A DNA stretch of 50,834 bases from a bacterium. GTDB lineage: Bacteria; Krumholzibacteriota; Krumholzibacteriia; LZORAL124-64-63. This document shows, piece after piece, positions 4,301 through 46,324 of the stretch; the stretch's first letter is position 1; the number at the start of each line of letters is the position of its first letter. The position numbers and the translations under genes were made by a program. The notes beneath the pieces were generated by a model, which did not search any database, was not told the DNA's origin, and worked only from the letters and a program-made list of their open reading frames with translations. The stretch is taken from assembly GCA_031441465.1 (NCBI GenBank), contig JANOEP010000041.1, positions 1-50,834 of the forward strand. The letters are read 5' to 3'.

Positions 4301-5674
4301 CCAGTGGTCGTCGTTCGTCCCGTCGCCGATGTCACGGACGACCGCGCCCAGGAAGCCCTCGGTCCGGTACGGGTCGTCCCACGACGCGCCGCACGAGGAC
4401 ACGTTTTCCATATCGTAGATCGCGGAGGCGGCGCGCCCGTACACGGCGGCGAAGCTGCCCGGGATCACGTCACCCATCCAGTCGGGGAAGCCCTCGTTGA
4501 AGGCGTCGTGGTCGGTCTCGCGGCACCAGATGCAGTGGCCGCACCCGCCGGTGTCGCAGATGCCGTTGCAGTAGTCGGGCACGGTGTTGATGGCGAAGCT
4601 CTGGATCCAGTGATGCCCGTACTCGTGGCTGTGGACGTTCTCGTTCCACTGCTCGCCGGTGCTGACGTAGATCTCGCCGTTGTAGAAGGCGCCGCCGGTC
4701 CCGTTGGGCCAGTTGCAGCGCACGAACGGCGTGTCGAAGCCGTAGCCGACCCACCAGCGCCAGGTGCGCGTCAGGTCGGTGAGCTGGTGCAGGGACGGGT
4801 GCTGGTTGACGTCGCCGGGCTGCAGCCAGCCGTAGTCGAGGTCCGTGCCCAGGTAATCGCTGGTGGTGCCGGTCTCCCAGGCGTACGTGGTGCTCCAGGT
4901 GGCGTCCTCCACGTTCACGCGGGTGTTGCCGGCCTCGAAGCGCACGTACAGGTCGGGTTCGGCGTCGTCGAAGAACCCGGGGTTCCAGTAGAACGTGGCG
5001 TCGTACCAGCCCTGGGCGTCGGTCGCCACGACCGCCAGCTGCTGGGAGCCGAACGGCGAATCGTTGTCCATGATGCGGACCGTCATGCCGTCGGCGCCGA
5101 TGGACCAGCCGTCGAAGCGCTGGTAGATGAAGCGGCCGTGGACGCGGATGTTGCGCGCCTTCTCGCCGTTGCCGGGAGCGGGGGTCGCGTAGACGTCGGA
5201 GGGCGACGGCTCGGGCGTGAGCCGCGAGTCGTCGTCCAGCGGGTGGACGTCCTCGTCGGCTTCGACCTTCACCACCGCGCCGGGGCTCAGCAGGCTCGCG
5301 ACGTGCGACGGCGACACGTTGAACTGCCGGGTGACCGGCTCGCCGTCCATCTCGAAGGTGAACTCGAGCCACTGCTCGGGGTCGCCCGGCATGACCGTGA
5401 AGTCGATGACCAGCGGCCGGTCCTTGTCGATGTCGGCGGTGGGTGTGACGTCCAGCGCGATCTCGCGCCAACCCGCCCCGTTGAATTCGAACTTGCCGAG
5501 CTGCGCGGGCACCTCGGACTCGATCTGCAGGCGGCCCGCGTAGGGCACGCCGGCCTCGGCGGCCACCGGCGGGCCGAGCAGCCTGACATGGATGGGCGGA
5601 CCGAGGTCGGCCCGCGCGGCGACGGCGCCCAGCAGGGCGAGCGTCACCGTCAGCAGCCTCAAGATTCTGCGCAT
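1301..5674 (-). CDS. Large secreted multidomain protein: gluzincin-type metallopeptidase domain, two ~367-aa CARDB/PPC-like repeats, C-terminal FlgD-Ig tail
   Basis: Signal peptide MRRILRLL...AARA; HEYGHH plus downstream NEGF; duplicated 'QWVWSP...LYxNCDGxRM' module; C-terminal 'HPNPFNPQT...WDGRD...SGVYMARL...KMVLLK'; AGGAGGT RBS. Confidence 0.8.
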   Translation of the reverse strand: MRRILRLLTVTLALLGAVAARADLGPPIHVRLLGPPVAAEAGVPYAGRLQIESEVPAQLGKFEFNGAGWREIALDVTPTADIDKDRPLVIDFTVMPGDPEQWLEFTFEMDGEPVTRQFNVSPSHVASLLSPGAVVKVEADEDVHPLDDDSRLTPEPSPSDVYATPAPGNGEKARNIRVHGRFIYQRFDGWSIGADGMTVRIMDNDSPFGSQQLAVVATDAQGWYDATFYWNPGFFDDAEPDLYVRFEAGNTRVNVEDATWSTTYAWETGTTSDYLGTDLDYGWLQPGDVNQHPSLHQLTDLTRTWRWWVGYGFDTPFVRCNWPNGTGGAFYNGEIYVSTGEQWNENVHSHEYGHHWIQSFAINTVPDYCNGICDTGGCGHCIWCRETDHDAFNEGFPDWMGDVIPGSFAAVYGRAASAIYDMENVSSCGASWDDPYRTEGFLGAVVRDIGDGTNDDHWAFAETDELSLGWDEVITCVDLDHPTTPALFLTAFKNRYPWAREGLWASAKNCGYEIDVTNPPAVSSLYSTSHATSGDSPDTTIDLVWTRAYDDASGVEGYGITIAGGIGLPSAVMDIGDVTNYTTPSLAPGTYYFSIRTLDRSGKWSGTYNWSGPYTVRAPVPANLTFALWSGWAAPQLPRETADSAWNYAPAPGILPGDAAGSWWNLTGVNNGESTTGSGFYAYSYIDAAMQWWASWGAVGAGGGFWGANIGPLWAGGGRHTFETRLDATDLIAETNESDNRWAHQWVWSPTALTPSSPLVHAAPPGQTAGWDAVVDGSPLYANCDGMRMNVASWWDVAVLRPLNGGSDHDLQLFPPSTGAANGFVSSSAYSGRLSGMIDAVIVNRNIDYGTYDVGVTNWNGEGSNYELTHVVSGGIAFGDSVTVPFAQDEMVKIWEFYVSPGNAGAVSIIVDSALENGPLYATWLNDTFQVGSLYTYSAWAQTDGYGRARMDVTIPDDGYNALVVYRDPDWNKGTAPIDVTIEIQRTPPDFVPLWATGWHAPIVPRPAFDGTYGSTPAPTLLYGNSASTYFNVAVTNNSPTGSATLPGNIYLDGSFAAWVVWGAFPGYGTGLFNWNYAWDIRGGRHSLAWRLDEALEYEEIYETNNVYGEQWVWSPLDLTVATPVARWAPPAAYGGWTDVSTGEPLYPNCDGLRMPSAGFWQATAVMPGAESDVDLRLHTASTGAKDGFADNLTGSYWWGGESDYVLVNFNLAGSAPYDAGVVNFSGYENYTAETAATSGWIFYPHGVYGTYDLPADRILNLHELYLPAGQYGVELDNVAGAVDWGITLHPADQIYQSKSSGLATAYWAGGPGQDETLTVTVPAEGFYCLAVWKRGSADLPVAGSYNLAIGPVSATGIDDGTPAPSTTALVGIHPNPFNPQTQIQFELAREGAVRLEIYDLQGTLVRTLVEGSRGSGRHTETWDGRDNAGGQVASGVYMARLAAGGMQQMQKMVLLK

Positions 5675-5692
5675 ATCGGCACCTCCTGCCAT

Positions 5693-29814: not shown

Positions 29815-30906
29815 TTACCTGGCGGGTGCAAGCTCGTTGTAGAGGGTGTCGCGCAGGACGGGATCGAGGCCGACGCCGCGGATGAAGGACTCGATCTCGT
29901 CGCGGGTCATGCCGGTGCCGGCGGTGCCGCCGGCGGCCAGGGTGATGCGCTCGTCCGAGATCGTGCCGTCGAGGTCGTCGGCGCCGCAGCGCAGCGCCAG
30001 CTGGGCGACCTCGCGCCCGAGCATGACCCAGTAGGCCTTCACGTGGGGGACGTTGTCCAGCAGCAGGCGCGACAGGGCCACGACCTTGAGCTTCTGGATC
30101 AGCGTAGGACCGGGCAGGTCCGCGAACTTCGTGCCCGCGGGGTGGAAGGCCAGCGGGATGAAGCACTGGAAGCCGCCGGTGCGGTCCTGCTGGTCGCGCA
30201 GCATGAGCAGGTGGTGGACCCAGTGGCGCGGCTCCTCGACGTGGCCGAAGAGCATCGTGCAGTTGGTCTTCAGGCCGGCCTCGTGGCAAAGGGCCGCCAC
30301 TTCGAGCCAGCGCTCGCCCGACATCTTCTTCGAGGCGATCCGGTCGTGGATCTCAGGATGGAAAATCTCGGCGCCGCCGCCGGGGCAGCTGTCCAGGCCG
30401 GCCTCGCGCAGCGCGGCGATGGTCTCGGGCACGGTCAGCTTGCCGATCTTCGCCAGGAAGTCGATCTCGACCATCGTGAAGGCCTTCAGGTGCACGTCGG
30501 GGAACGCCGCTTTCAGCGCGCGCAGGATGTCCAGGTAGACGGGGAACTTCCAGCGCGGGTGCAGGCCGCCCACGATGTGGAACTCGCTGGTGCCGGGGAT
30601 GAAGTCGCGTCGGGCCAGCTCGACGCACTCCTGGGGGCTGTAGCTCCAGGTGCCGGGTGCGTTGGGGTCGTCGGCGTAGGCGCACAGCTCGCAGCCCACG
30701 TAGCAGACGTTGGTCGGGTTGATGTGACGGTTGATGTTGTAGAAGACCTTGCGCCCGTGCTTGCGCTCGCGGACGGTGTGGGCCAGCCAGCCCAGCAGGG
30801 GCAGGTCGTCGCTGGCGGCCAGCAGCAGGCCGTCACGCTCGTCCAGGCGCGAGCCCGCGGCGATCTTGCGCGCGACGGGGGCCAGGGGGTGGGAATCGGG
30901 GATCAT
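29815..30906 (-). CDS. mqnE: Aminofutalosine synthase (radical SAM, CofH/MqnE family)
   Basis: HINPTNVCYVGCELC, HIVGGLHP, PGGGAEIF, FIPLAFHP, HVKAYWVM. Confidence 0.85.
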   Translation of the reverse strand: MIPDSHPLAPVARKIAAGSRLDERDGLLLAASDDLPLLGWLAHTVRERKHGRKVFYNINRHINPTNVCYVGCELCAYADDPNAPGTWSYSPQECVELARRDFIPGTSEFHIVGGLHPRWKFPVYLDILRALKAAFPDVHLKAFTMVEIDFLAKIGKLTVPETIAALREAGLDSCPGGGAEIFHPEIHDRIASKKMSGERWLEVAALCHEAGLKTNCTMLFGHVEEPRHWVHHLLMLRDQQDRTGGFQCFIPLAFHPAGTKFADLPGPTLIQKLKVVALSRLLLDNVPHVKAYWVMLGREVAQLALRCGADDLDGTISDERITLAAGGTAGTGMTRDEIESFIRGVGLDPVLRDTLYNELAPAR

Positions 30907-30937
30907 GGCGCCTCCCGGCGTCGGCCTCGATCGGGCC

Positions 30938-31318
30938 TCAGCGCTCGTCGGCGCTCCCGGACATCTTGATCTGCGGCAGCAGGGTCGTGTCGAACATCTG
31001 CTTCTGGCCCGACTCGACGTTGCGGATCTCCTCGATGCCGCGGCGCAGGCCGGCCAGCACGCTGGTGACCTCGATATTGCCGTAGCGGTAACCGAAGTGG
31101 CGCAGCTTCTCCATGGCCTCGATCATCTTCTGCTCGCCTTTGCGCGGCTGCTTGGTCATGACCAGCTCGAAGCCGACGGCGGCTTCGTGCAGGCCCATCC
31201 AGAACAGCTCGTCGCGGCCGACGGCGCCCTTGAGCCCCTCGGCGGTCAACGCGACCGTATCGGCGTAGCGGCGGTTGTTGAAGGCTTCCACGGAACGGCT
31301 CAGCAGATCTTCGCTCAT
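30938..31318 (-). CDS. Hypothetical protein, DUF309-like helical fold
   Basis: VEAFNNRRY...FWMGLHEAAVG; AAGGAG RBS; operonic between def and mqnE. Confidence 0.65.
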   Translation of the reverse strand: MSEDLLSRSVEAFNNRRYADTVALTAEGLKGAVGRDELFWMGLHEAAVGFELVMTKQPRKGEQKMIEAMEKLRHFGYRYGNIEVTSVLAGLRRGIEEIRNVESGQKQMFDTTLLPQIKMSGSADER

Positions 31319-32664: not shown

Positions 32665-32773
32665 CTTCGCTCATCGTCACGACAGGGGGGGTCGTGATTG
32701 TCTCGACTAGCCATACCTAACGAACCCACAGGATCTACATGATTGCGGCTCTCAAAAACTTTGGAGGTGGCTC

Positions 32774-35700
32774 ATGACAACCAACAAATTTGCCAAAAGA
32801 AGTGCCTTCGGATCAATCGTGTTTCTTTGTCTGGCCTGCGCCCTGACGCCGGCCCTGGCCGACAACTGGCCCATGTGGCGGAACGGCGCGAACAACGCCG
32901 GCTCGTCGAACGAAAACATCCTCCTGCCGTTGTCCGAGCAGTGGCATTCCACGGCGCCCCTAGTGGAAGAGAACGGCGTGGTCGTCGCCGGCGGCATCGC
33001 CTACATGGCGACCGACGACGGTTGGCTCTTCGCCTTCGATGTGACGACGGGATTCGATGTGCCGGGATACCCCGTCCAGATCGTTCATACCTGGGGTTCG
33101 CCGGCTGTCGATGTCGCCAACGGCCTCATCTACGGTCTGGCGGGCGTCAACCTGTACGCCTTTTTCCTGAACGGCACTCCGGCCTGGACCGCCTCGGTCG
33201 GCTCGGTCGGCAGCAACTACTCCGAGGGGCCGGTCGTCGACGAGGGCTTCGTCTACCTCAAGGCCGGCGGTAATCTGCGGAAGTACAGTGCGGCCGGCGC
33301 GCTGCAGTGGTCGTCGGCGGCGGGCGGCCCGAACACTCAGCCCGCGATCATGGGCGCCCACGTCTACTCGAACTCCGAGACCGGACAGATCCAGAAGTTC
33401 GACAAGGCGACGGGAGTTCAGATCACCACGGGCGGATTCCCCATCAATACCGGCTACGGCGTGACGGCCCTGACCGCTGCCGACGGCAGGCTGTTCCTCA
33501 AGTCCGATGTTCTCTACGCCTACGACGCCGACAACGGCAGCCTGTTGTGGTCGCAGCCCGACGGCGGTTACAGCACCTATTACGGTACCCCGGCCGTGTC
33601 CGGCGCCGTCGTGTACACCTACGGCTGGGATGCGCGGATCTATGCCTTCGACGTGAGCACGGGCGCCACCATGGCGGGCTTCCCCTCCATCGCGCTGAGC
33701 AACCTGAATGACCGGAATTGGAGTTCCCCGGCGGTCGCGGGGAACAAGGTGTTCATCGGCGCCGGCACGTCCCAGATGTTGAAAGTTCTGGGAGCCGCCG
33801 GTTCAGCCGAAGCGGGCCAGGTGCTGGCCGAGTACCTGACCTTCTCCACCGACGCCCAGGGCTTCGACCTCTGCTCGGCCGCCGTTTCCGACGGCTGGGT
33901 CTTCGCCATGCTGGACGGTGGCGGCCTCTACGCCTTCTTCGGCGGGGCCGGAAATCCCCCGTCCGGCGCCTTGGTCATCAACGGCGGAGCCGAATGCACC
34001 CAGTCCCAGGCAGCGACCCTGTCGCTGGACAACAACGGCAATGCGGATGTGGTGGAGATGAGGATCTCCGAGGACCCGTTCTTCTCGGGTGCGCCGTGGA
34101 TCCCCTACATGGCCTCCTCGTCCTGGACCCTGTCGCCGGGATACGGCATGAAAACGGTCTATTCCCAGTTGAGGGACAACGGGGGCCTGCTGTCCAACGT
34201 GTTCACGGATCAGATCGATTACCAGGCGAGCTGCGAGGGCTCGGTGTGCGTCTGGGTCGACTCGGGCCAGATCACCGAGCACGCCACCTCGTACGGCACG
34301 GCCTGGGGCGACTACGACAACGACGGCGACCCGGACCTGCTGGTGGCCAACGACGGGCCCAACCACCTCTACGAGAACGTCAACGGCGTCCTGACGCTGG
34401 TCCCGAACTGGTGCAACGACGACGAGCCGTCGTACAGCGCCGCCTGGGGCGACTACGACAACGACGGCGATCTCGATCTCTACGTGGTCAACGACAGCGT
34501 GGGCAACGCGCTCTACCGCAACGACGCCGGCGCCTTCACCCGCGTCGACGCGGGAGCCGCCGCCGACGGCGGCAGCGGCTACAACGCCGCCTGGGCCGAC
34601 TATGACAACGACGGCGACCTCGACCTCTACGTCTGCAACCGCCACGGCACCAATCACCTCTACCGCAACGACGATGCGGTCTTCGTGAGTGCCGGCGGCG
34701 TCACCGAGGTGAGCGGCACCAGCCGCGGCTGCGCGTTCGCCGACTACGACAACGACGGCGACCAGGACCTCTACGTCAGCCGCGTCGGTGTGAACTATCT
34801 CTTCCGCAACGACAACGGCGTCTTCGTCGATGTCTCCGCAGCGCCCGTGAACGACGCCGGCGACGGCAAGGGCGTGGCCTGGGGCGACTACGACAACGAC
34901 GGCGACCTCGACCTCTACCTGGTCAACACCGGTGGCGCCAACAAGCTCTTCCGGAACGACTTCCCGGGTGGGTTCTTCACCGACGTCACCGACCCCCTGA
35001 CCGGCGATCCGGAGAACGGCCGGGCTTGCGCCTGGACCGACTACAACAACGACGGCTGGCTCGACCTGTTCCTCGCCAACCACACCGGCGGGAACCACCT
35101 GTTCCACAACACGGGCGGAGCCTTCGCCGACAGCACCTGCGGCGCGCTGGCCGCCACCGCCAACCTGTCGACGTGGGGCTGCGCCTTCGCCGACTACGAC
35201 CTCGACGGCGACCAGGATCTGGCCGTGGCGGTCCGGACGTACTCGGAGACGAGCAAGCTCTTCCGCAACGATCTCGAAAGCAGCCTGGCGCGGAGCTGGC
35301 TGCAGGTCGACCTGCGGGGAGTCACCTCCAACCACTTCGGCGTGGGCGCCAGGATCACGGTCGATACCGGCGATCTGACGCTGATGCGTGAGGTGAGCGC
35401 CAGCGGCTCCTACCTGAGCCAGGCGCCTCTGACCGCCAGCTTCGGCCTCGCGGGAGCAACGACCGTGAACATGACCGTGCGCTGGCCCTCGGGCGTCGTC
35501 CAGGAGCTGACCGACGTGCCGGTGAACCGCCGCATCGAGATCGTGGAGCAGGCCGGCTCCACGGGGACGCCGGCGCTGCCGCACTCGCCGCTGCTGGTCG
35601 TTTCCAACTTCCCCAACCCCTTCAACCCGTCCACGACGTTCGAGCTTTCGATCCCGCGTAATTCGAATGTCGATCTGCAGATCGTCGACGCCGGTGGGCG

Positions 35701-35866
35701 CATCGTCCGCCGGTTGCTGACCGGCGAGCCCTTGTCCGCCGGCTTCCACCAGGTCCAGTGGCAGGGTCTGGATGACGCGGGCATGCTCGCGCCGTCCGGC
35801 GTGTATTTCTACCGCTGCCTGGCCGCCGGTGAGACCGTGACGGGCAGGATGTTGTTGCTGAAGTAA
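32774..35866 (+). CDS. Secreted protein: PQQ-like beta-propeller, seven FG-GAP/VCBS repeats, ASPIC/UnbV domain, FlgD-Ig tail
   Basis: DNWPMWR, repeated SPAV/YAFD..TG motifs; 7x A(W/F)xDYxxDGxxDL; WLQVDLRG..SNHFGVGARI; NFPNPFNP...SGVYFYR. Confidence 0.88.
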   Translation: MTTNKFAKRSAFGSIVFLCLACALTPALADNWPMWRNGANNAGSSNENILLPLSEQWHSTAPLVEENGVVVAGGIAYMATDDGWLFAFDVTTGFDVPGYPVQIVHTWGSPAVDVANGLIYGLAGVNLYAFFLNGTPAWTASVGSVGSNYSEGPVVDEGFVYLKAGGNLRKYSAAGALQWSSAAGGPNTQPAIMGAHVYSNSETGQIQKFDKATGVQITTGGFPINTGYGVTALTAADGRLFLKSDVLYAYDADNGSLLWSQPDGGYSTYYGTPAVSGAVVYTYGWDARIYAFDVSTGATMAGFPSIALSNLNDRNWSSPAVAGNKVFIGAGTSQMLKVLGAAGSAEAGQVLAEYLTFSTDAQGFDLCSAAVSDGWVFAMLDGGGLYAFFGGAGNPPSGALVINGGAECTQSQAATLSLDNNGNADVVEMRISEDPFFSGAPWIPYMASSSWTLSPGYGMKTVYSQLRDNGGLLSNVFTDQIDYQASCEGSVCVWVDSGQITEHATSYGTAWGDYDNDGDPDLLVANDGPNHLYENVNGVLTLVPNWCNDDEPSYSAAWGDYDNDGDLDLYVVNDSVGNALYRNDAGAFTRVDAGAAADGGSGYNAAWADYDNDGDLDLYVCNRHGTNHLYRNDDAVFVSAGGVTEVSGTSRGCAFADYDNDGDQDLYVSRVGVNYLFRNDNGVFVDVSAAPVNDAGDGKGVAWGDYDNDGDLDLYLVNTGGANKLFRNDFPGGFFTDVTDPLTGDPENGRACAWTDYNNDGWLDLFLANHTGGNHLFHNTGGAFADSTCGALAATANLSTWGCAFADYDLDGDQDLAVAVRTYSETSKLFRNDLESSLARSWLQVDLRGVTSNHFGVGARITVDTGDLTLMREVSASGSYLSQAPLTASFGLAGATTVNMTVRWPSGVVQELTDVPVNRRIEIVEQAGSTGTPALPHSPLLVVSNFPNPFNPSTTFELSIPRNSNVDLQIVDAGGRIVRRLLTGEPLSAGFHQVQWQGLDDAGMLAPSGVYFYRCLAAGETVTGRMLLLK

Positions 35867-36813: not shown

Positions 36814-36826
36814 GTGACTTAGTCAC
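36814..36826. promoter_or_regulatory. Palindromic operator, candidate binding site of the adjacent Crp/Fnr regulator
   Basis: GTGAC-tta-GTCAC about 70 nt upstream of 36896. Confidence 0.55.
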
Positions 36827-36895
36827 GGCCGTATTCTTCCGGCGTGCCTAGTGTGGCAGAGAGCCGTCACACACACGCCCCAAGAGGAAACCGTC

Positions 36896-37987
36896 ATGAA
36901 GAAGGTCGGGGCCGATTTGATCAGGCGCTCCATGTTGCTGGCTGCCGTCGCGGCGCTGGCGGCGGTCATCTGGGCCGCTCCGGCTCAGGCGCTGCCCCGC
37001 TACTCGGCGCGCTACGGCCAATCCTGCCTGCTCTGTCACGAGAATCCCACCGGCGGCGGCATGCGCAGCGCCTACGCTGCGGAGTACCTGATCCCGGAGG
37101 AGCTGGCCGCGCCGTCCTCGCCCGAGGCGCGGTTCTCCCCGGGAATCGGCGAACGTGTCGCCGTCGGTGCGGATCTCAGGACACTGCTTTACCAGAGCGA
37201 CCACGGGCGCGACGGCGTGCTCGCGATGCAGGCCGACCTCTACCTGTCGGTACACATGGACGACCGCACTGCGGTGTACATCGAGCGCGGCAACGGCGGC
37301 CAGGGCGAGGCCTACGGGACCGCCCGCGTCCTGCCCGGCGACGGCTACCTGAAGGCCGGGCATTTCCTTCCCGCCTACGGCTGGCGCTTCGCCGACCACC
37401 AGCTCCCGGCGCGACGTTACTTGTTCCATCCCGAGGGCAACGACCGCACCGCGCTGCTGCTCGACGACGGTCTCGAACTGGGCCTCGCCCCGGAACCCCT
37501 CGAGGTGGCGATCTCCTACCTCGCCGGATCGACCGGGGAAGGCGGCAGTTATGCCGGTCGCGTGGCGGCGCGGCGTTCGTTCGGCGCGGTGAACCTGGCG
37601 CTGGGCGCCTCCGTCTGGCGCGTGCGGCGAACCGGCGGCCACGACCGCGTCGCGGGCGGTTTCGGCTACGCGGCGGCCGGACCGGTCAGTTGGATCTGGC
37701 AGGTCGACGAGACGCGCGTCGGCGGCGACCTGGGCCGCCTGGTCACCCACGAACTGGCCGTGCGTGTGCGCAGGGGCTGGGATCTGCGCGCCACTTACGG
37801 CTTCCAGGATCCCGACCGCGCGCTGGCCGACGGCGCCCGCACCTCCTGGAGCTTCGGCGTCGACGCCCTGCTCGGACCTCATCTCGGCGCCGTGCTGACG
37901 GCGCGCCGCGAGGAGAACGACCCGGGACCGCGGTCGCCGGAACCCGACACGACCCGCGGCGAACTCGTCCTGCACGTCCTGTTCTGA
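36896..37987 (+). CDS. Outer-membrane beta-barrel protein with an N-terminal monoheme CxxCH
   Basis: Signal peptide AQA-LPRYS; CLLCHENPTGGG; amphipathic strands; C-terminal F. Confidence 0.75.
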   Translation: MKKVGADLIRRSMLLAAVAALAAVIWAAPAQALPRYSARYGQSCLLCHENPTGGGMRSAYAAEYLIPEELAAPSSPEARFSPGIGERVAVGADLRTLLYQSDHGRDGVLAMQADLYLSVHMDDRTAVYIERGNGGQGEAYGTARVLPGDGYLKAGHFLPAYGWRFADHQLPARRYLFHPEGNDRTALLLDDGLELGLAPEPLEVAISYLAGSTGEGGSYAGRVAARRSFGAVNLALGASVWRVRRTGGHDRVAGGFGYAAAGPVSWIWQVDETRVGGDLGRLVTHELAVRVRRGWDLRATYGFQDPDRALADGARTSWSFGVDALLGPHLGAVLTARREENDPGPRSPEPDTTRGELVLHVLF

Positions 37988-38017
37988 ACCGCGCAGACCA
38001 TGCCTACGGGAGGGAAC

Positions 38018-38620
38018 ATGTCCGGACGCGAGATCATCCTCACCGCCGTCCTGATGATCGGCGGCGCCGCGGTCGCCCACGCCGCGGACTACGTGCTGAC
38101 CCCCGGCGCCGGATCCACCGTGAGCTTCGAGTCGAAAGCGCCCGTGGAATCCTTCCGCGGTGAGACGCACACCATCAACGGTCGCTTCAGCGCGGATCTC
38201 GACAGCCTGGCCGGCGAGGTTGCGGTGACGGTGGAAGTGGACCTCGCTTCCCTCGACACCGGGATCGGTCTGCGCAACAAGCACATGCGCGAGAACCACC
38301 TCGAGACCGACCGCTTCCCGCAGGCCGTGTTCCGCGGCGCGCGCATCCTCGAGGCCGCGCCGGCCTCGCTGCTCCCGGGCGGCGCCTGCGAGATCACCCT
38401 GGTGGGCGAGCTCGACCTGCATGGCGTCGTGAAGCCCTTGACCCTCCGCGCCAAGCTGGCCCTGTCGCTGGATGGCGTGCTGACGGTCACGGCCGACTTC
38501 CCCGTGCGCCTGTCCGACCACGCGATCCCGCGCCCCGGCTTCCTGACGATGAAGCTGGCGGACGAGCAGCGCGTCAGCCTGCACCTGGAGGCGCGGCCCG
38601 CCGCCGAGACCGCACCATGA
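38018..38620 (+). CDS. YceI-family periplasmic lipid/isoprenoid-binding protein
   Basis: STVSFESKAP, SLDTGIGLRNKHM, FPQAVF, GELDLHGVVKP. Confidence 0.9.
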   Translation: MSGREIILTAVLMIGGAAVAHAADYVLTPGAGSTVSFESKAPVESFRGETHTINGRFSADLDSLAGEVAVTVEVDLASLDTGIGLRNKHMRENHLETDRFPQAVFRGARILEAAPASLLPGGACEITLVGELDLHGVVKPLTLRAKLALSLDGVLTVTADFPVRLSDHAIPRPGFLTMKLADEQRVSLHLEARPAAETAP

Positions 38621-39030
38621 CCATCCGTCGTCCAAGCGCGATCATCGCCGCCGCCGGCCTGGCGCTGCTCGTCGGGTGCGCGGACGAGGGTGCCGATCCC
38701 ATCTCCCCCGGCGGCAGCGGCGACATCTACTACGCCCGCGACATCCAGCCGCTGTGGGACCGGGACTGCACGGGTTGCCATGTCGCGGGCGGCGAGGCAG
38801 GGCTCGACCTGAGCGCCGGGCACAGCCATGCCGACCTGGTGGGCGTGCCGGCCGCCGGGTACGCGGCGGATCGCGTAGCGGCCGGTGATCCCGCTGCGTC
38901 GGTGCTGTACGGGAAGCTGACCGACACGGGTCAATTCGGCGGCCCGATGCCGGACGGGGGGCCCGCCTTGAGCACGGCCGATCTGGAGCTCGTGCGCCGC
39001 TGGATCGCCGACGGCGCGCGCGACGACTAG
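38617..39030 (+). CDS. Monoheme c-type cytochrome lipoprotein (planctomycete cytochrome c-like domain)
   Basis: Lipobox LVGC; DIQPLW..CTGCH...GLDL...MP...WIADGA. Confidence 0.82.
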   Translation: MTIRRPSAIIAAAGLALLVGCADEGADPISPGGSGDIYYARDIQPLWDRDCTGCHVAGGEAGLDLSAGHSHADLVGVPAAGYAADRVAAGDPAASVLYGKLTDTGQFGGPMPDGGPALSTADLELVRRWIADGARDD

Positions 39031-39055: not shown

Positions 39056-39922
39056 TCACGATGTGAACGCGCCGCCCGCCCACGCCAACACCTTCACGAA
39101 CGCCGCCGCCGCCAATCCGGCCACGAACAGGCAACGACCCGCCCGCCACCACGCGCGGATCCTCCGGACGCGGAGCGGCGCCTCCTGCGGGAGCGCGCGC
39201 GACAGCGACGGCACGCCCAGCGCATCGCACAGCAGCCAATAGGCGTCGGTGCGCGCGAAGGGCTGCGCGTTCCAGGCGACCGCGGTCACGATCGCGCCGC
39301 CGGCCCACAGCAGATCCGGCCGGTGCCACCACCGCCCCGCGCAGAGCAGCAGCCCTCCCAGCGGCAGTTGCACGGCGACGCCGGCGACGTCCACCCGCAG
39401 GCGGTCGCGCGTCGGCAGGAGCGCCGCCTCGGTCACGTCGCACCACAACACCGGCACCACCCACAGCAGACCGGCGCCGACGGCGCCCGCGCGGCCGCCG
39501 CCCCGGTGCAGGGCCGCCGCGTGCCCCAGTTCGTGCCCCAGGGCGACCAGCACGACGACCGTCGCGGCGAGCAGCGCCTGCGGCCAGCCGAGCGGAGCGG
39601 CGCGCCCCCCGCGGTCGGGCAACATCGCCGCCAGGACGCAGAGCAGCAGGCCGGCGGCCGCGGACGAGATCAGCGCCGGCCACCCGGTCGCCGGAGCCAG
39701 GCCGCCGGCCAGCGCCTGCACGATGCGCGCGGGCAGCAGCGTCGCGCGCAGCCGGGAGCGTCGCGGGCGCGGCGCGGCGTCGAGCAGGGCGCCGAGGTGG
39801 TCGGGGTCGCCGCCATCGCGCGCACGCCGCGCCAGATCCGCGGGCAGCGTGTAGCGGCGCCCGCCGCGGCGCAGGAGCCAACGCCCGTCGGGCAGCGCTT
39901 CGAATTCTGGAGCGGCGCTCAC
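39056..39922 (-). CDS. M50-family membrane zinc peptidase, YydH-like
   Basis: HELGH; G.GLLWVVPVLWCDVT...RLRVDVAG; NAQPFARTDAYWLLCD; GTGA overlap with the upstream gene. Confidence 0.8.
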   Translation of the reverse strand: MSAAPEFEALPDGRWLLRRGGRRYTLPADLARRARDGGDPDHLGALLDAAPRPRRSRLRATLLPARIVQALAGGLAPATGWPALISSAAAGLLLCVLAAMLPDRGGRAAPLGWPQALLAATVVVLVALGHELGHAAALHRGGGRAGAVGAGLLWVVPVLWCDVTEAALLPTRDRLRVDVAGVAVQLPLGGLLLCAGRWWHRPDLLWAGGAIVTAVAWNAQPFARTDAYWLLCDALGVPSLSRALPQEAPLRVRRIRAWWRAGRCLFVAGLAAAAFVKVLAWAGGAFTS

Positions 39923-41028
39923 CCCGCCGCGACCAGATCGGCCAGCCCGATCGTCGCGAGGCGCCGGGCGTGGCCCGCCGTCCAGCGCCGGCCGCAGAGG
40001 GCGCGCAGTTCGGTCAGGGTCGGCGTCGTGGCCCGCAACAGGTCGAGCGCCGCGTCGCGCAAACCCTCGGCGGCGTAGAACGCCTCTCCCTGAGGATCGG
40101 CGAGGATGTCCGGTTCCCAAACCTCCACGCCCGGTCGCAGCGCGAGCCGCACGAGGTCCGGCCCGTGCGCGAGGGCGTCAAGGAACAAGGCCTCGCGCCG
40201 ACGCAGCTCCTGCGGATCGACCGCGAGCCGATCGTGCGCGAAGCACGCGCTCGCGGCGCCCAGCATCCCCCAGGCCGACCACTGCTCGGGCGAGCGGCGC
40301 ACTTCGGCGAAGAGCCAGTCGTACAGCCGGGTCGTGATCGTCTCCGGATCGGCGTCCGCCGGCCACGGCGCCGGCGCGCCGGCCTCCCAGAGCAGCAACC
40401 CGTCCGGCCGCCAGCGCACGGTCAGGGCGTGCACGGGGCACTTCGCGTGGCCGAGCAGCCGCCCCAACCCGGTGCGGACGCGCAGGTCGCGGCCCGGCAA
40501 CCTGTACGTCAGGCCGCGGTCGCGCGTGGCCGCCATGCCGCCCTCGCCGCTGTTGCCGTCCAGGAACACCAGCACCGGGCGCCCCGCCCGCAGGCAGCGC
40601 AGCAGGCGGCCCGCGAACGCCGGCCGGTCCGTCACGAGCCACTCGGGCTCCCCGGTCAAGCCCAGCGCCCGGCGCTGCCGGTCGGCGTCGGCGCGCAGGC
40701 GGTCGTGGGCTGCGCGGTCCAGCAGCACCACCGGCGACAGGCCGAGATCCAGGTACAGGCCGGGGATCAGCGAGTACGGGCCGAGGTGCAGCCCGAGCAC
40801 CAGGCCGCGGTGCAGCTCGCGATGGGAGGACAGGAACGAACGGGCCTCGGCGCGCAGTCGGCGGTGGTCCCCCGAACCATCGCGCAGCACCCGGCGCGCG
40901 TGCTCGTCGCAAGTGCGCCGGCCGGATTCCAGGGCGAGCAGGGTGGCGGCGCCGGCTCCCGGCTCGAGGGCCTGGAGGTTCCAGAGATCCCAGCGGCGGC
41001 GCGGCGACGGGCTGTGCGCGAGCGGCAT
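39919..41028 (-). CDS. LpxL/LPLAT-superfamily acyltransferase-like protein with an extra C-terminal domain
   Basis: LVLGLHLGPY, LRCLRAGRPVLVFLDG, RVRTGLGRL...CPV, EVRRSPEQW.W; GGAGG RBS. Confidence 0.72.
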   Translation of the reverse strand: MPLAHSPSPRRRWDLWNLQALEPGAGAATLLALESGRRTCDEHARRVLRDGSGDHRRLRAEARSFLSSHRELHRGLVLGLHLGPYSLIPGLYLDLGLSPVVLLDRAAHDRLRADADRQRRALGLTGEPEWLVTDRPAFAGRLLRCLRAGRPVLVFLDGNSGEGGMAATRDRGLTYRLPGRDLRVRTGLGRLLGHAKCPVHALTVRWRPDGLLLWEAGAPAPWPADADPETITTRLYDWLFAEVRRSPEQWSAWGMLGAASACFAHDRLAVDPQELRRREALFLDALAHGPDLVRLALRPGVEVWEPDILADPQGEAFYAAEGLRDAALDLLRATTPTLTELRALCGRRWTAGHARRLATIGLADLVAAG

Positions 41029-41057
41029 GGTTCGTCCTCCGGGGCCGGAACCGGGTC

Positions 41058-41090
41058 GGCCCGTCCGTCGCCGGCCGCGGCGGACGGGCC
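41058..41090 (-). terminator. GC-rich stem-loop between the peptide gene and the acyltransferase gene (attenuator or mRNA stabiliser)
   Basis: ggcccgtccgtcgc-cggcc-gcggcggacgggcc. Confidence 0.55.
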
Positions 41091-41126
41091 CGTGTCAGCG
41101 GTGGCCGGAACTCCGGCGACCGGGGC

Positions 41127-41318
41127 TCAGGGCCCCCCGATGGCGTCGTCGACGGCTTCGGGGTACTTCTCCAGCTTGCACTGGCAGAAGTTGTTGCAGC
41201 AGCCGCCGTCGCCCACGTCGTCGCCGAGCAGGGGGCTGGTCTCGAGGCGTTCCTCGAGTTCCTCGATCCCGAGCCGGGCGAGCGCCGTCGGGGCGTCACG
41301 GTTCTTCGTTTCGGTCAT
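41127..41318 (-). CDS. 63-aa putative RiPP precursor: MTETKNRDAPTALARLGIEELEERLETSPLLGDDVGDGGCCNNFCQCKLEKYPEAVDDAIGGP
   Basis: Perfect Shine-Dalgarno AAGGAGGTGA just before ATG; typical GC3 codon usage; leader-like acidic helix followed by a Cys-rich segment. Confidence 0.75.
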   Translation of the reverse strand: MTETKNRDAPTALARLGIEELEERLETSPLLGDDVGDGGCCNNFCQCKLEKYPEAVDDAIGGP

Positions 41319-41374
41319 CGTCACCTCCTTCGTGGTCACGCATCGTTCTGTCGGATCGCGACGACCGGCCCGGG

Positions 41375-41390
41375 GCAAGCGCGGCACCAA
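41375..41390 (-). promoter_or_regulatory. Possible sigma54 promoter for the peptide operon
   Basis: Minus strand ttGGtgccgcgcTTGC, GG-N10-GC spacing, about 57 nt upstream of ATG 41318. Confidence 0.4.
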
Positions 41391-41645
41391 CTCAACGTGC
41401 AGCCGAGGATCGGTCGCAGGTGGCGGCGAGGACCGGAATCGGGATCCCCGCGCCGAGCGAAGGCCCTCGCGGGACGACTGCGGCAGCGGACACGACGGCC
41501 CGGCCTCGTCAACGAAGGGAGACGTGGTTCCCGTCGGCGCGGGATTCCGGGCCGGTCGACGACCGGACGGCGGGTGACGCCCGTGTCGGGGGCTGCTATA
41601 TTGCGACCGCCCGCCTCCGGAAGTCCGTCCTCGAGGAGAACCCGC

Positions 41646-42752
41646 GTGCGCCTGCACCGACATCTCGGCCTGATGTACGGCATCCTCGTGGCGCTGATCG
41701 TCGTGATCGGGGCGTGGTGGGTCTACTACCTGACCCGCGAGGGCCACCATTACGAGAGCTACCAGCTCCAGCGCTACCGCACCGACCAGATGCACGCGGT
41801 CTACATCCTCGAGACGGTGCCCGAGGCGCGGGACGACCCGTCCACGATGCTGGGCCGCGCCTTCCCGCACCTCCTCTTCCAGAAGACCGACAAGGGTTGG
41901 GAGGTGGGCATCGACCCGGCGGCGGTCGCCGACGTCCAGAAGGAGGCGGCGCGGCGCCGGCGCATGTTCATGACCGAGGGCGTGGTGTTCCTGCTGCTGC
42001 TGGCCGCGGGCACGACCATCCTGACCCTGGCCTCGCGGCGGGAGCGCGACTTCAAGCGGGCGCGCGAGCTGTTCCTGGCCGGAGCGACGCACGAGTTCAA
42101 GACGCCGCTGGCGAGCATCCGCCTGTACACCGAGACCCTGCAGCGGCCCGACCTGCCGCCGGACGCCGGCCTGCGCATCCGCGGCGCGATGCTCCAGGAC
42201 GTCGAGCGGCTCGAGGCGATGATGGAGCAGGTGCTGTCGGTGAGCCGCGACGAGGATCACCTGCGCGGCATGCGCGAGACGATCGACCTCGCGGACGTCA
42301 CCCGCGACGTGCTGGAGACCATGGGCGCGTTCCTCGTGGATCGCGGCGCCCGTCTGGAGGTCGACGTGCCCGAGGGCCACCTCGTGGTCGGCGACCGCCA
42401 GGCGCTGCGCGTGGCGGTGCGCAACCTCGTCCACAACGCGGTCCTCTACAGCCCGCCGCCGGCGCAGGTCTCCGTGACGCTGTACCGGGACGGCAACCGG
42501 CACCGCCTGACCGTGCGCGACCGCGGGCCGGGCATCCCCCGCCGCGAACAGAAGCGCGTCTTCGACAGCTTCTACCGGGCCGAGACCGGCGCCGGCTCCC
42601 TGAACGAACGGCCGCGCGGCTCGGGGCTCGGCCTGTACCTGGTCCAGCGCAACCTCGAGAGCCTGGGCGGCCGCGTGGAACTGGAGAGCGAGGAGGGGCG
42701 CGGGGCGGCCTTCACCCTGGTGCTGCCCGTCTTCGAGGAGGAATCGCGATGA
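41646..42752 (+). CDS. Membrane sensor histidine kinase
   Basis: Two TM helices; ATHEFKTPLASI H-box; NLVHNAVLY, DRGPGI, GSGLGL; GAGGAG RBS. Confidence 0.92.
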   Translation: MRLHRHLGLMYGILVALIVVIGAWWVYYLTREGHHYESYQLQRYRTDQMHAVYILETVPEARDDPSTMLGRAFPHLLFQKTDKGWEVGIDPAAVADVQKEAARRRRMFMTEGVVFLLLLAAGTTILTLASRRERDFKRARELFLAGATHEFKTPLASIRLYTETLQRPDLPPDAGLRIRGAMLQDVERLEAMMEQVLSVSRDEDHLRGMRETIDLADVTRDVLETMGAFLVDRGARLEVDVPEGHLVVGDRQALRVAVRNLVHNAVLYSPPPAQVSVTLYRDGNRHRLTVRDRGPGIPRREQKRVFDSFYRAETGAGSLNERPRGSGLGLYLVQRNLESLGGRVELESEEGRGAAFTLVLPVFEEESR

Positions 42753-43438
42753 AACGGCGCATCCTGGTGGTGGAGGACGACGAGCACCTGGCCGACGGCA
42801 TGCGGCTGAACCTGGAGCTGGAGGGCTACGAGCCGGTCGTGGCCGTGTCGGCGGAGGAGGGGCTGAACTACTGGAAGCGCGGCGGCGTGGACCTCGTGCT
42901 GCTGGACGTGATGCTGCCCGGCATGGACGGCTTCGCGTTCTGCAGGAAGATCCGCGAGGAGGGCGACCGCGTGCCGGTCCTGTTCCTGACCGCGCGCGGC
43001 CGCGACGACGACCGCGTCCGCGGCCTGGAGATGGGCGGCGACGACTACATCACCAAGCCGTTCAACCTGAGGGAGCTGCTGGCCCGCATCAAGGGCATCT
43101 TCCGCCGCGAGGAGTGGCGCCGCGAGACCACGGCGCCGGACACGCTGGAGATCGGCGACTCGGTCGTCGACCTGCGATCGCTGACCGTCACCAACCCCCG
43201 CGGCGTCCACGCGTTGAAGGACAAGGAAGCCATGATCCTGCGCGTGCTCGCCGAGAAGGACGGCGAGCCGGTGGCGCGCCGCACGCTCCTGGACCGCATC
43301 TGGGGCTACGACGCCTACCCGACCACACGCACGGTCGACAATTTCATCCTGAACCTGCGCAAGATCATCGAGACGGATCCCGGCAGCCCGGCGCACATCC
43401 TCACCGTGCACGGCACGGGCTACCGCCTGGCGCGCTGA
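42749..43438 (+). CDS. OmpR-family response regulator
   Basis: ILVVEDD, LLDVMLPGMDG, DDYITKPF, TRTVDNFI, TVHGTGYR. Confidence 0.95.
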   Translation: MKRRILVVEDDEHLADGMRLNLELEGYEPVVAVSAEEGLNYWKRGGVDLVLLDVMLPGMDGFAFCRKIREEGDRVPVLFLTARGRDDDRVRGLEMGGDDYITKPFNLRELLARIKGIFRREEWRRETTAPDTLEIGDSVVDLRSLTVTNPRGVHALKDKEAMILRVLAEKDGEPVARRTLLDRIWGYDAYPTTRTVDNFILNLRKIIETDPGSPAHILTVHGTGYRLAR

Positions 43439-43454: not shown

Positions 43455-45164
43455 TCAGCGGACCAGGGCCAGCCGCCGGACCACGATCGCCTCATCTCCC
43501 GCGAGACGCAGCAGGTACGTCCCGCTCGGCGCCTCCCGGCCGTCGGCGGTCCGACCGTCCCAGCGCAACACGTGCTCACCGGCGGCGGCGGGTCCGTCGG
43601 CGAGCGTCGCGATCCTGCGGCCGCGCAGGTCGTGCACCGTCGCGATCAGGAATTGGGCGCGTGCGAGTCTCACCGTGGCCGCCGTCGAGGGATTGCAGGG
43701 ATTCGGCTCGAGACGGGTCAGCTCGAGGCCGGTGGAAACGGACGCGGGGCCGGCCCGGGCGGGACCGTACCAACCGGATGTCCCGGCACCCAATCCCTCG
43801 AGCCAGTAGTCGGCCGTCGCCGCCGGCGGGTCGACGTCCACCCACCCCGGCGCGGAATCGCACAGCAGCGGCGCCGCGGTCAACCGCAACCGTCCGCCGC
43901 CCGGCGTCTCGCGCCAGACGTGGAGGCTGCCGACCTCCTCGCACGCGCGCACCAGCCATTCGAGGCGCACGACCGCACCCGCGCGCGTCGCCGTGAATTC
44001 GTCCAGGACGAGCGGCGTGGTCGTGTCGGGGATCAGCCCGCCCACGATCTTCTCGGCCGCCGGGTTGGCCGAGGTGAGGATGGCGTCCAGGGCGAACCAT
44101 CCGTCGTCGGCGCCACCCCAACCGTAGTTGATGTGGATCAGCGGGATCCCGTCGATTTCCTGCCAGCCGTCGCAGACCATGGTGTGGATGGTGGAGGCGT
44201 AGAGCAGAGGCAGGCCGGCGTCGAGATCGGCGCGGATCGTGTCGAACCAGGTCTGGTCGCTCAGGCGGAAGCGCGACGTCTCGCGCGCCGTCGCGGCGTA
44301 GCGGAATTTCTGGACCATCGCCAGTCGCGCCGCGGAGAGCGAGGCGCCCGTGCCGCAGAAACTGAAATCGGCGCCGCACGCCAGGGCGGTCTCGAAGCAG
44401 AGTTCGGATACGGCGTCCCGCACCGCCTGCGGGTCGCCGGCGGCGGCGGCATCGGGCATGGCGTCCCAGTCGTAGGGATCGGTGAAGTCGGCCCGCAGCG
44501 TGTCGCCGGGCGACGCGCCCCCGCACCGGGTGTCCCCCGCCCACCAGCGTGCGATCGCACCCCGGCCCCGCGGCGGCCAGCTGTGGTGGCGCATGACCTG
44601 CGCGACGGCCAGGGGCGTGCAACCCACGAAGGTCTGCGCGCCGTCGCCCTGCGGGCAATCGTCGTTGTAGGGAGAGCCCTGCGCCCAGGCGGAGGCGAGC
44701 AGGGGGCTGATGCCCGCGGTCGCGACAGCCGCTTTCGTGCTCAGCGCACGCCAGGCGGGATGCTCGCCGAGTGCCGCGGGTCCGGCGCGCGTCAGCAAGG
44801 AGGTACGATCGGCCAGATCGTCCCTCGCCACCGCCGCCGCGCCGCCCGTCGCCTCCGGATCGAACACGCCGCGCTCCGACCAGGCCTTCACGGGCGCCAA
44901 CTCGCGCCGCGCGGGCACCAGGATCCAGCCCTGCGGGGCCAGACGGACGATCCAGCCGATCGTCGCGCCGTCTCGGTCGAGAGCCGCGACCTCGCCCACG
45001 ACGGCCCCGACGCCGGACGTCGGCGCCGCGTCCCGGCCCGTCACGATCTCCAGCCAGCGGGCCGCGATCGCCCCCGCGTCGTCGCGGGTGACGGGCGCCG
45101 CGGCGTGCGCGGCCGTGCAGATCGCGAACAAGGCCGAGATGCAACATTGCCGGATGCGGATCAT
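43455..45164 (-). CDS. Secreted C10-family (streptopain-like) cysteine protease with propeptide and FlgD-Ig tail
   Basis: WAQGSPYN..CP, VGCTPLAVAQVM, HTMVCDG, HINYGWGG; PNPCNP...SGTYLLRL. Confidence 0.88.
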   Translation of the reverse strand: MIRIRQCCISALFAICTAAHAAAPVTRDDAGAIAARWLEIVTGRDAAPTSGVGAVVGEVAALDRDGATIGWIVRLAPQGWILVPARRELAPVKAWSERGVFDPEATGGAAAVARDDLADRTSLLTRAGPAALGEHPAWRALSTKAAVATAGISPLLASAWAQGSPYNDDCPQGDGAQTFVGCTPLAVAQVMRHHSWPPRGRGAIARWWAGDTRCGGASPGDTLRADFTDPYDWDAMPDAAAAGDPQAVRDAVSELCFETALACGADFSFCGTGASLSAARLAMVQKFRYAATARETSRFRLSDQTWFDTIRADLDAGLPLLYASTIHTMVCDGWQEIDGIPLIHINYGWGGADDGWFALDAILTSANPAAEKIVGGLIPDTTTPLVLDEFTATRAGAVVRLEWLVRACEEVGSLHVWRETPGGGRLRLTAAPLLCDSAPGWVDVDPPAATADYWLEGLGAGTSGWYGPARAGPASVSTGLELTRLEPNPCNPSTAATVRLARAQFLIATVHDLRGRRIATLADGPAAAGEHVLRWDGRTADGREAPSGTYLLRLAGDEAIVVRRLALVR

Positions 45165-45382
45165 GGGCGGCCTCGCGTGGTGTGTTGGCGCGCAACGTCT
45201 TGTCCGGCAACGTGCCGGACACCCGAGCCGCGAATCGTGCGCTGCGGGACTTCCCCCCTTGCAGTCCCCGTACCGGAGCGGCAAGATTTCGGCGGACATG
45301 ACGTCTCCATGACACAAACCACACCCACGGTTCCTAGATTTGGCCGCGGCGATGGAAATCCGGCGAGCGGCGAGGAGGCGAC

Positions 45383-46324
45383 GTGAATCCTGGCGACGGC
45401 ACCGACATCATCCGCATCGGCACCCGCGGCAGCGAGCTGGCCCTGTGGCAGGCCCACCACATCCAGGATCTGCTCGGCGCGCTCGGCACGCAGACCTCCC
45501 TGACGATCATCAAGACGCAGGGCGACCGCATCGACGACGTGCCGCTGTCCCAGCTCGAGGGCAAGGGCTTCTTCACGAAGGAACTCGAGGACGCCCAGCT
45601 CGACGGCCGCGTCGACCTGGCCGTGCACTCGATGAAGGACCTCGCGACCGGGATGCCGGCGGGCCTGACGCTGGCCGCCCTGGTCGGCCGCGAGGACCCG
45701 CGCGAGGCCCTGCTGGTGCGGCCCGCCTGCGTGGACGGGGACCGCCTCGCGGCCGGCGAGCTGCTCCCGCTGCGGGACGGCGCGTGCGTCGGCACCAGCG
45801 CGGCCCGGCGCCAGGCCCAGCTGCGCGACCTGCGCCCCGACCTCGTGATCGCCGACCTGCGCGGCAACGTGCCCACGCGCGTGCGCAAGCTGCGCGACGG
45901 GCAGTACGACGCGATCCTGCTGGCGCGCGCGGGCGTGCTGCGCCTGAAACTCGACCTGGACGATCTCTGCGTGTTGCCGCTGGAGGTGGACGACTTCGTG
46001 CCCGCCCCCGCCCAAGGCATGCTCGCCCTGCAGTGCCGCGACGAACCGCGCCTGCGCGACCTCGTGCACCGCCTGCACTGCGAGCCGGACGGCCGCGCCG
46101 TCGCGGTGGAGCGCGCCCTGCTCGAGCGCCTCGACGGCGGCTGCCAGCTGCCCTTCGGCGTGAACGTGCGCCGGTTCGGCGAGGGGTTCCGGCTGAGCGC
46201 CTTCTGGAGCCCGCGCGACGGCGTCGGCGCGCCGCTGCACCTGCGTCTGGACGGGCCCGACCCCGAGGCCCTGGGCGACGAGGCGCTGCGCCGGATCCGG
46301 GACCGTGAGGGGAAACCGGCATGA
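45383..46324 (+). CDS. hemC: Hydroxymethylbilane synthase
   Basis: IGTRGSELALWQ, KGFFTKELE, AVHSMKD, RGNVPTR, GGCQLP. Confidence 0.95.
   Translation: MNPGDGTDIIRIGTRGSELALWQAHHIQDLLGALGTQTSLTIIKTQGDRIDDVPLSQLEGKGFFTKELEDAQLDGRVDLAVHSMKDLATGMPAGLTLAALVGREDPREALLVRPACVDGDRLAAGELLPLRDGACVGTSAARRQAQLRDLRPDLVIADLRGNVPTRVRKLRDGQYDAILLARAGVLRLKLDLDDLCVLPLEVDDFVPAPAQGMLALQCRDEPRLRDLVHRLHCEPDGRAVAVERALLERLDGGCQLPFGVNVRRFGEGFRLSAFWSPRDGVGAPLHLRLDGPDPEALGDEALRRIRDREGKPA

Follow-up and report, generated by a model that had tools for sequence, protein, structure and literature searches.

A candidate three-gene operon for a lipid-modified, cysteine-rich ribosomal peptide in Krumholzibacteriota

Three co-oriented and tightly packed genes on the minus strand of a Krumholzibacteriota contig encode, in order, a cysteine-rich peptide of 63 amino acids, a 369-aa protein in which a predicted acyltransferase domain is followed by a domain resembling a recognition element (RRE) of peptides that are ribosomally synthesised and then modified after translation (RiPPs), and a membrane protease with an HExxH motif. 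The window analysed here is the whole 50,834-bp contig, which belongs to a 3.49-Mb genome of 74 contigs and 69% GC, and each of the three genes is present in one copy in that genome. We consider it fairly probable that the three genes form a minimal RiPP-type operon whose product is a Cys-rich ribosomal peptide carrying a lipid. An initial annotation, made from the DNA alone, had proposed a lipidated-RiPP operon at this place; the proposal has since gained an RRE-like domain, conserved catalytic residues, co-occurrence of the genes across the phylum and gene fusions, and acyl transfer to the peptide is the part of it that we infer.

Conservation of the operon and its precursor peptide

The precursor peptide gene, 63 codons and a stop, lies at 41127..41318 on the minus strand (ATG 41316-41318, TGA 41127-41129) and encodes MTETKNRDAPTALARLGIEELEERLETSPLLGDDVGDGGCCNNFCQCKLEKYPEAVDDAIGGP. 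Read directly in the sequence, a strong Shine-Dalgarno element, GAAGGAGG (41324..41331, minus strand), stands 5 nt before the ATG, and the peptide contains IEELEERLE and GGCCNNFCQCKLEKY; the ribosome-binding site and the leader-like IEELEERLE segment that had been noted for a 63-aa peptide are both present. In an alignment of 24 precursors (A3) residues L13, R24, E26 and C45 do not vary, and C47 and P53 hardly do. The N-terminal half keeps the motif [ST]L.RLG[IV].E[LIV].ER[LM]E.SPLL, and from this alignment, together with a likeness to the daptide leader motif ELExMEAP, we place a putative leader recognition motif at residues 12-29 (ALARLGIEELEERLETSP; 41232..41285, minus strand). The C-terminal half is variable around a cluster of cysteines whose commonest form is CC[STV]CK[IM]P. 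In the window the cluster is CCNNFCQC, residues 40-47 (41178..41201, minus strand), which includes C45 and C47 and is the proposed acyl-acceptor region.

Of the 61 related genomes searched, 30 contain the 369-aa protein. With G000 set aside, it is present in 29 of the 36 genomes that belong to the same family in GTDB, and in none of the 24 that represent seven other families of the class. When one genome was scanned for each species, 52 loci emerged, in which precursors were found with a precursor hidden Markov model; labels of these loci that name a phylum are mostly Candidatus Krumholzibacteriota or Krumholzibacteriia, the other labels being Fibrobacteraceae, Latescibacterota or simply 'bacterium'. 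It had been suggested that short ORFs with the leader motif and protease genes should be sought beside homologs of the acyltransferase, and this co-occurrence is indeed found: 50 of the 52 loci have an intact precursor open reading frame (ORF) immediately upstream in the same orientation, and 42 have a gene for an M50 protease directly downstream, with eight of the others having less than 500 nt of downstream DNA. Since the same order recurs in relatives at these frequencies, the gene order is more than chance. The two loci without an intact precursor are L054, which is cut by a contig end so that the core alone is visible, and L049, which has a frameshifted second copy. Locus L049 is the second locus in the genome that holds L033; besides the frameshift in its precursor, its acyltransferase is matched in pieces with an internal TGA, and it appears to be a decaying duplicate.

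The precursor frame and its motif are kept in loci that range from 45% to 72% GC. Over the central 46 codons (11-56), nine within-genus pairs that differ there show 2-7 synonymous vs 1-2 non-synonymous differences, and for the more divergent within-genus pairs the whole-gene ratio of non-synonymous to synonymous change (pN/pS) is 0.16-0.33. Such synonymous-biased change fits a translated peptide under selection.

Cores could be counted in 51 precursors, that of the window and those of 50 loci. Every core has at least one Cys, placed 12-25 residues past the R[LM]E motif, with one Cys in four cores, two in one, three in 26, four in 15 and five in five. Of the 51, 37 have the pair CK and 47 have a Lys somewhere from the first Cys onwards, and Cys is the only nucleophile found in all 51. 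The acceptors first suggested for an acyl chain, namely Lys, Ser/Thr or the new N-terminus, have been amended with this result in favour of Cys. None of the 51 precursors ends in a C-terminal Thr.

The acyltransferase-RRE protein and the protease

The gene for the 369-aa protein, with its stop codon, occupies 39919..41028 on the minus strand, and its putative acyltransferase domain (residues ~11-267) corresponds to 40228..40998 on the same strand. The 25 close relatives present among 5.8 billion proteins are all without a functional name ('hypothetical'), the Pfam family PF03279 is matched weakly in 17 of 23 family members (best E 0.0041), and a profile search of PDB sequences with the family alignment A1 found nothing below E 0.65. 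An AlphaFold2 model built from 23 homologs (mean predicted local distance difference test, pLDDT, 87.4; predicted template modelling score, pTM, 0.76) has the alpha/beta acyltransferase fold of PatA and LpxM, and with this model Foldseek returned LpxM and PatA at the top (E 4.9e-9 to 1.9e-7), the next family following at 4.7e-3. Among ESM-Atlas clusters the nearest are those of lipid A or lysophospholipid acyltransferases, with scores of 0.95-0.96. The genome has three canonical PF03279 genes elsewhere, and hhalign of A1 against these paralogs gave a probability of 96.2% and E 2.5e-9.

In the hhalign alignment His81, within the motif LHLGPY (40786-40788, minus strand), falls on the catalytic His of the HxGN[WF]E motif (HFGNFE, HFGCWE and HMGNWE in the paralogs), and Asp157, within LDGN (40558-40560, minus strand), falls on the conserved block-3 Asp (PDVN, MDQN, GDRD). 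Both residues are invariant in the 23 homologs, which share 35-88% identity. According to the available text of the PatA study, the acid of the HX4D motif in PatA is structural rather than catalytic, and in PatA, HtrB and MsbB the charge relay uses the block-3 acid (PMC4792965). The dyad expected for the PatA/HtrB/MsbB branch is therefore present, because the block-3 acid is the invariant Asp157. The assignment to LpxL/LPLAT-type acyltransferases, first made from the sequence alone, is borne out by the fold and by the retained catalytic His and block-3 Asp.

At E<=1e-3 a profile search among 1.84 billion representative sequences found 757 relatives; 242 of them reach <=1e-10 and 20 reach <=1e-30, and 14 of 20 more distant relatives inspected pass the PF03279 cut-off. 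In four of the 17 relatives scanned with NCBIfam (P0063, P0099, P0121 and P0139) a daptide-type protease, N-terminal, and the acyltransferase, C-terminal, are found in one chain, which provides a Rosetta-stone link between the two enzymes. In another relative, P0054, the acyltransferase is joined to a fragment of a fatty-acyl-AMP ligase, and this fusion points to fatty acids as the group handled. A metagenome scan with a 5-sequence alignment added two loci, L084 and L085, of a distant acyltransferase-RRE subfamily. Each has a short ORF directly upstream (L085:3346-3483 and L084:643-792), and these share the N-terminus …ELY[KR]AY[ST]V[KE]EI[LQ][ED]RREMF… and have C-termini that differ; the ORFs contain no Cys and are Ser- or Tyr-rich, and neither locus has an adjacent M50 gene. 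In L085 an SGNH-like and an MBOAT-like ORF follow, as identified by eye alone.

The last ~100 residues of the 369-aa protein are modelled as a separate domain, which we describe as RRE-like (PqqD-like winged helix; residues ~272-369; 39922..40215, minus strand) and in which three predicted strands are followed by three helices, the arrangement of a winged-helix fold. In a structural search, leader-binding domains of RiPP enzymes account for 13 of the 50 matches listed, aligned to residues ~270-369; five of the 13 have entry titles that mention PqqD, an RRE or a bound leader peptide, and the rest we take to be RREs. The scores of these matches are modest and other winged-helix proteins are interleaved with them in the list. 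The C-terminus of the distant relative P0038 gives weak PqqD matches (TIGR03859 at E 1.8e-3 and NF033530 at E 4.4e-3), and it is on the modelled fold, the architecture and these weak matches that we base the RRE-like assignment. A complex prediction that combined A1 with A3 scored 0.00 and 0.01 against a mark of 0.32, with the fold of the partner uncertain, and is used neither for nor against binding. Elsewhere in the genome the sole match above the cut-off for the PqqD family (PF05402), at 28.1 bits, is at C10:62022-62183 on the minus strand (locus L086), which may mark another RRE-dependent system.

The third gene (39056..39922, minus strand) encodes a 288-aa protein which by homology is a putative intramembrane leader peptidase of the HExxH (site-2/M50) type. 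Its GTG start codon (39920-39922) overlaps the TGA stop of the acyltransferase gene (39919-39921) in the sequence GTGA, the coupling reported for it from the outset. The protein carries HELGH (39521-39535) in a transmembrane helix, an invariant P221 and D226 that make up the second site-2 protease (S2P) motif with its conserved Pro and zinc-binding Asp, and an S2P fold. Against the model of the daptide intramembrane metalloprotease, NF041824, it scores E 1.8e-22 and 80 bits vs a cut-off of 300, the match covering the membrane part alone (residues 83-279 vs model positions 128-334), and it is thus a homolog, not an equivalog, of the daptide protease. The YydH/LiaK model NF058609 gives E 3.8e-5 and 23.5 bits vs a cut-off of 225. 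The gene had been called a YydH-like M50 peptidase, and the M50 assignment stands, but its closest kin among these models is the daptide protease and not YydH. The first ~55 residues make up three strands and two helices, a candidate for a shortened RRE, and in the longer relative P0121 there is a PqqD-like match in the region of the protease N-terminus.

Proposed mechanism and rival explanations

We propose a mechanism in which the 63-aa precursor is translated, as the conservation of its reading frame supports, and its acidic leader LARLGIEELEERLETSP would then be bound by the C-terminal RRE-like domain, as fold and architecture suggest. His81 would act as general base with Asp157 as its charge-relay partner, and a fatty acyl chain would be passed to the core from a donor that is probably housekeeping acyl-ACP (acyl carrier protein) or acyl-CoA. 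The likeliest acceptor would, speculatively, be a thiol of the Cys cluster, ~13-20 residues past the leader motif, giving S-acylation, with the often-adjacent Lys as the alternative. Acylation would bring the peptide to the membrane, where the translationally coupled site-2 protease, to judge by its homology, may cut off the leader, so that lipidation could, speculatively, be what hands the peptide over to the intramembrane protease. Should the cut lay bare an N-terminal Cys that is S-acylated, an S-to-N shift could take place next; cleavage might instead fall after …ETSP, by analogy with the Pro(-1) of daptides. The operon encodes no exporter and its product may therefore stay membrane-associated. 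Because the operon is single-copy, syntenic and present in most genomes of one Krumholzibacteriota family, its function looks more like a lineage-wide physiological one than a strain-specific antibiotic, and its occurrence in 29 of the 36 family genomes would allow the RiPP a physiological, envelope-associated role. In its most specific form, our proposal is that an RRE-fused LpxL/PatA-type acyltransferase S-acylates Cys, that lipidation delivers the peptide to the S2P to yield a membrane-anchored lipopeptide that is not exported and is a trait of the Krumholzibacteriota lineage as a whole, and that the wider family, with 242 representatives at E<=1e-10, represents a widespread and undescribed class of lipidated RiPPs; all of this together we offer tentatively and regard as doubtful.

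Several results weigh against a lipidated RiPP. The window protein is below the Pfam thresholds both for PF03279 (11.9 bits, E 0.13, vs 22.3) and for PF01553 (13.5 bits, E 0.065, vs 23), and it has no NCBIfam match. The acid of the HX4(D/E) motif is absent, its position being taken by Ser86, which is variable among homologs. No match to PF05402 (PqqD) was found in the 23 family members at E<=1. Two of the loci, L072 and L074, have 4 kb of downstream DNA with no M50 gene in it. The acceptor residue is uncertain, because in only 37 of the 51 cores does a Lys come after the last Cys, and four of the 51 contain just one Cys. The transfer of an acyl group to the peptide is predicted, as are its donor, its acceptor and the site of cleavage. 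It should also be considered that DapB, as described in the available text of the daptide study, consists of ~266 aa followed by an RRE at the C-terminus, and that it is required only in combination with DapC (PMC10036551).

Among the rival explanations is one that keeps the lipid and moves it, with N- or O-acylation placing the chain on the Lys after the Cys cluster, on Ser/Thr or on the new N-terminus, and leaving the cysteines for disulfides or metal. The frequency of CK and of a Lys at or after the first Cys would suit this, as would the Cys-free and Ser- or Tyr-rich short ORFs of L084 and L085, and known RiPP acyltransferases, in the available text of PMC13647313, modify Lys or Orn side chains or N-termini. 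However, 14 of the 51 cores lack CK and four lack a Lys from the first Cys onwards, whereas Cys is in all of them, and acylation of an N-terminus after cleavage would need no RRE on the enzyme. We judge this explanation to be unlikely.

The strongest rival is a DapB-like adaptor role. Here the LpxL-like domain would be a catalytically silent scaffold that, as DapB does, only offers the peptide, held by its leader, to the protease or to a different enzyme, and the product would be an unacylated Cys-rich peptide, metal- or redox-active or disulfide-bonded, that is released by the S2P. The domain organisation described for DapB, the scores below Pfam cut-offs and the missing HX4(D/E) acid are what such a scaffold might look like, and a Cys-rich core would suit metal binding. 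Yet His81, Asp157 and many LpxL-family positions are invariant over the 23 homologs, down to 35% identity, and the operon has no other enzyme for a scaffold to serve. Moreover, the DapB model NF041823 is without a match in the genome (E<=1) and in the 17 scanned relatives, and P0054 is fused to a fatty-acyl-AMP-ligase fragment. With these points in view a scaffold appears quite improbable.

It could also be argued that the protein is an ordinary envelope-lipid acyltransferase, that the short ORF is a regulatory upstream peptide and that the M50 protein is an unrelated signalling site-2 protease. This would agree with the fold and the nearest ESM-Atlas clusters, and with a locus that is set amid housekeeping genes and next to a two-component system, but the genome already has its three canonical PF03279 genes, the enzyme carries an RRE-like C-terminal domain, the protease matches RiPP leader peptidases and is fused to the acyltransferase in relatives, and the peptide has a conserved leader, a variable core and conserved Cys; we hold this explanation to be very improbable. 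That the 63-aa ORF is no gene at all is barely credible, since, plentiful as spurious ORFs are at 69% GC, this one has a strong Shine-Dalgarno sequence, mostly synonymous changes and a frame and motif kept in 50 of 52 loci between 45% and 72% GC.

Relation to known systems and the surrounding genes

The closest parallels to the proposed lipidated-RiPP operon are found in the daptides. As far as the available text of the daptide study describes it, the daptide peptidase is an intramembrane site-2 protease with an RRE joined to its N-terminus, it recognises the leader motif ELExMEAP, whose Leu and Met are required if processing through the RRE is to occur, and DapB is a non-catalytic adaptor (PMC10036551). 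The daptide leader ends in Pro(-1). The two systems are alike in having an intramembrane S2P as leader peptidase, which is RRE-dependent in daptides and in our operon matches NF041824; in having acidic leaders, ELExMEAP and EELEERLExSP respectively; and in having a protein of ~370 aa with an N-terminal domain and a C-terminal RRE, which is DapB by its description. They differ in that the operon is without DapC, DapD and DapM, the 369-aa protein has no match to NF041823, and the protease at 80 bits is below the NF041824 cut-off. Daptides also have an invariant C-terminal Thr, which the operon precursors lack, and a hydrophobic, aliphatic core, whereas the operon core is Cys-rich and acidic, and daptide chemistry is a C-terminal amination in contrast to the acyl transfer predicted here. 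A tblastn search with the M50 protein against plasmids gave only nine matches, all weak and partial (30-36% of the query), and did not lead to a daptide cluster, and the available text of the literature searched gives no fold for the N-terminal domain of DapB.

Known members of the PatA, LpxL (HtrB) and LpxM (MsbB) group acylate lipid A or phosphatidylinositol mannosides, whereas the domain described here has an RRE-like domain attached to it and a gene that is placed between those of a peptide and a leader peptidase; it is also unlike them in scoring below the PF03279 cut-off and in lacking the HX4(D/E) acid. The RiPP lipidation carried out by GNAT enzymes (in selidamides, lipolanthines, goadvionins, lipoavitides and aphotorhaptins) resembles our proposal as a leader-dependent fatty acylation, which in our case is predicted, but the enzyme would be of the LpxL/PatA type instead of a GNAT, and the known acceptors are Lys or Orn side chains or N-termini, in contrast to the universal Cys of the operon cores (available text of PMC13647313). 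The YydH/LiaK (EpeP) protease likewise belongs to the membrane, has an HExxH motif and matures a ribosomal peptide, but it is matched much more weakly than the daptide protease, and the operon has no radical SAM epimerase. TMcin maturation also takes place at the membrane with intramembranous biosynthetic proteins, although its precursors have a transmembrane helix of their own and the available text describes no acyltransferase (PMC13252029).

In the available text of PMC13647313 the named RiPP fatty acylations are all GNAT-dependent and act on amines. An LpxL, Lip_A_acyltrans or LPLAT enzyme in a RiPP pathway was not found in the literature searched, including the accessible parts of PMC12710340, PMC7470986 (on RREs) and PMC13647313 (2026, on RiPP N-acyltransferases), although one could be tabulated in the supplementary tables on RREs or daptides. 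We rate the system as a new RiPP class which combines known modules (RRE and S2P leader peptidase) with a maturase superfamily that is new to RiPPs and whose chemistry is predicted. If this is true, it would provide a second and unrelated enzyme superfamily for RiPP lipidation, possibly with Cys thioester chemistry, and it would suggest a simple logic whereby lipidation passes the peptide to an intramembrane protease and a dedicated exporter is unneeded. A pathway of three genes would be attractive for genetically encoded lipopeptides, and several hundred distant relatives offer a handle for genome mining.

A subgroup formed by L072 (3632-7274), L074 and L073 has single-Cys cores (…PKSY[VI]C[NT]I…). 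In L072 and L074 the acyltransferase-RRE gene is followed by a FabH-like ketoacyl-ACP synthase III and an ABC ATPase, with no adjacent M50 gene, and L073 is cut by a contig end; an ORF upstream in L072 looks like a CusA-like RND pump, by eye alone.

The 98-nt intergenic spacer between the precursor and acyltransferase genes (41029..41126, minus strand) does contain the GC-rich stem-loop that had been pointed out there, with a minimum free energy of -63.6 kcal/mol. Its significance and conservation were not borne out: z is -1.77, 11 of 200 dinucleotide shuffles fold equally well, no terminator-like site or T-run was found in the spacer, and in relatives the spacer is 30-267 nt long, in some of them only 30-39 nt. 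The hairpin is therefore not considered meaningful, and a role as attenuator or terminator is rejected, as it folds no better than chance and no terminator site accompanies it. All other features seen in the initial annotation are confirmed.

The neighbours of the operon in the window are housekeeping genes for heme synthesis, a peptide deformylase, a MqnC-like radical SAM enzyme, cytochromes and a divergent OmpR-type two-component system. No transporter was found among the genes near the operon, and the operon itself consists of the three genes alone, in agreement with the initial annotation, which had seen neither a transporter nor a radical SAM gene in it; the nearest radical SAM gene, CofH/MqnC-like, is at 29815-31122, ~8 kb away. 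The two-component system, a histidine kinase and an OmpR-type response regulator (41688-43438, plus strand), lies divergently upstream of the precursor gene, and a sigma-70-like site on the plus strand (41574-41602) is found between the operon and this pair. The pair adjoins the operon in six of 16 relatives examined and may regulate it. On the other side three genes converge on the operon (36818-39030, plus strand), encoding an unannotated 389-aa protein, a YceI-like protein and a 137-aa protein which has a CxxCH heme-binding motif and no Pfam match.

C-termini of the FlgD_ig/Por_Secre_tail type are usual for sorting-signal cargo in this group of phyla. Such C-termini are present on three large secreted-type proteins of the window (43455-45407, minus strand; 32711-35866, plus strand; 1301-5692, minus strand), the three being a C10 peptidase, an FG-GAP/ASPIC protein and a 1463-aa protein.

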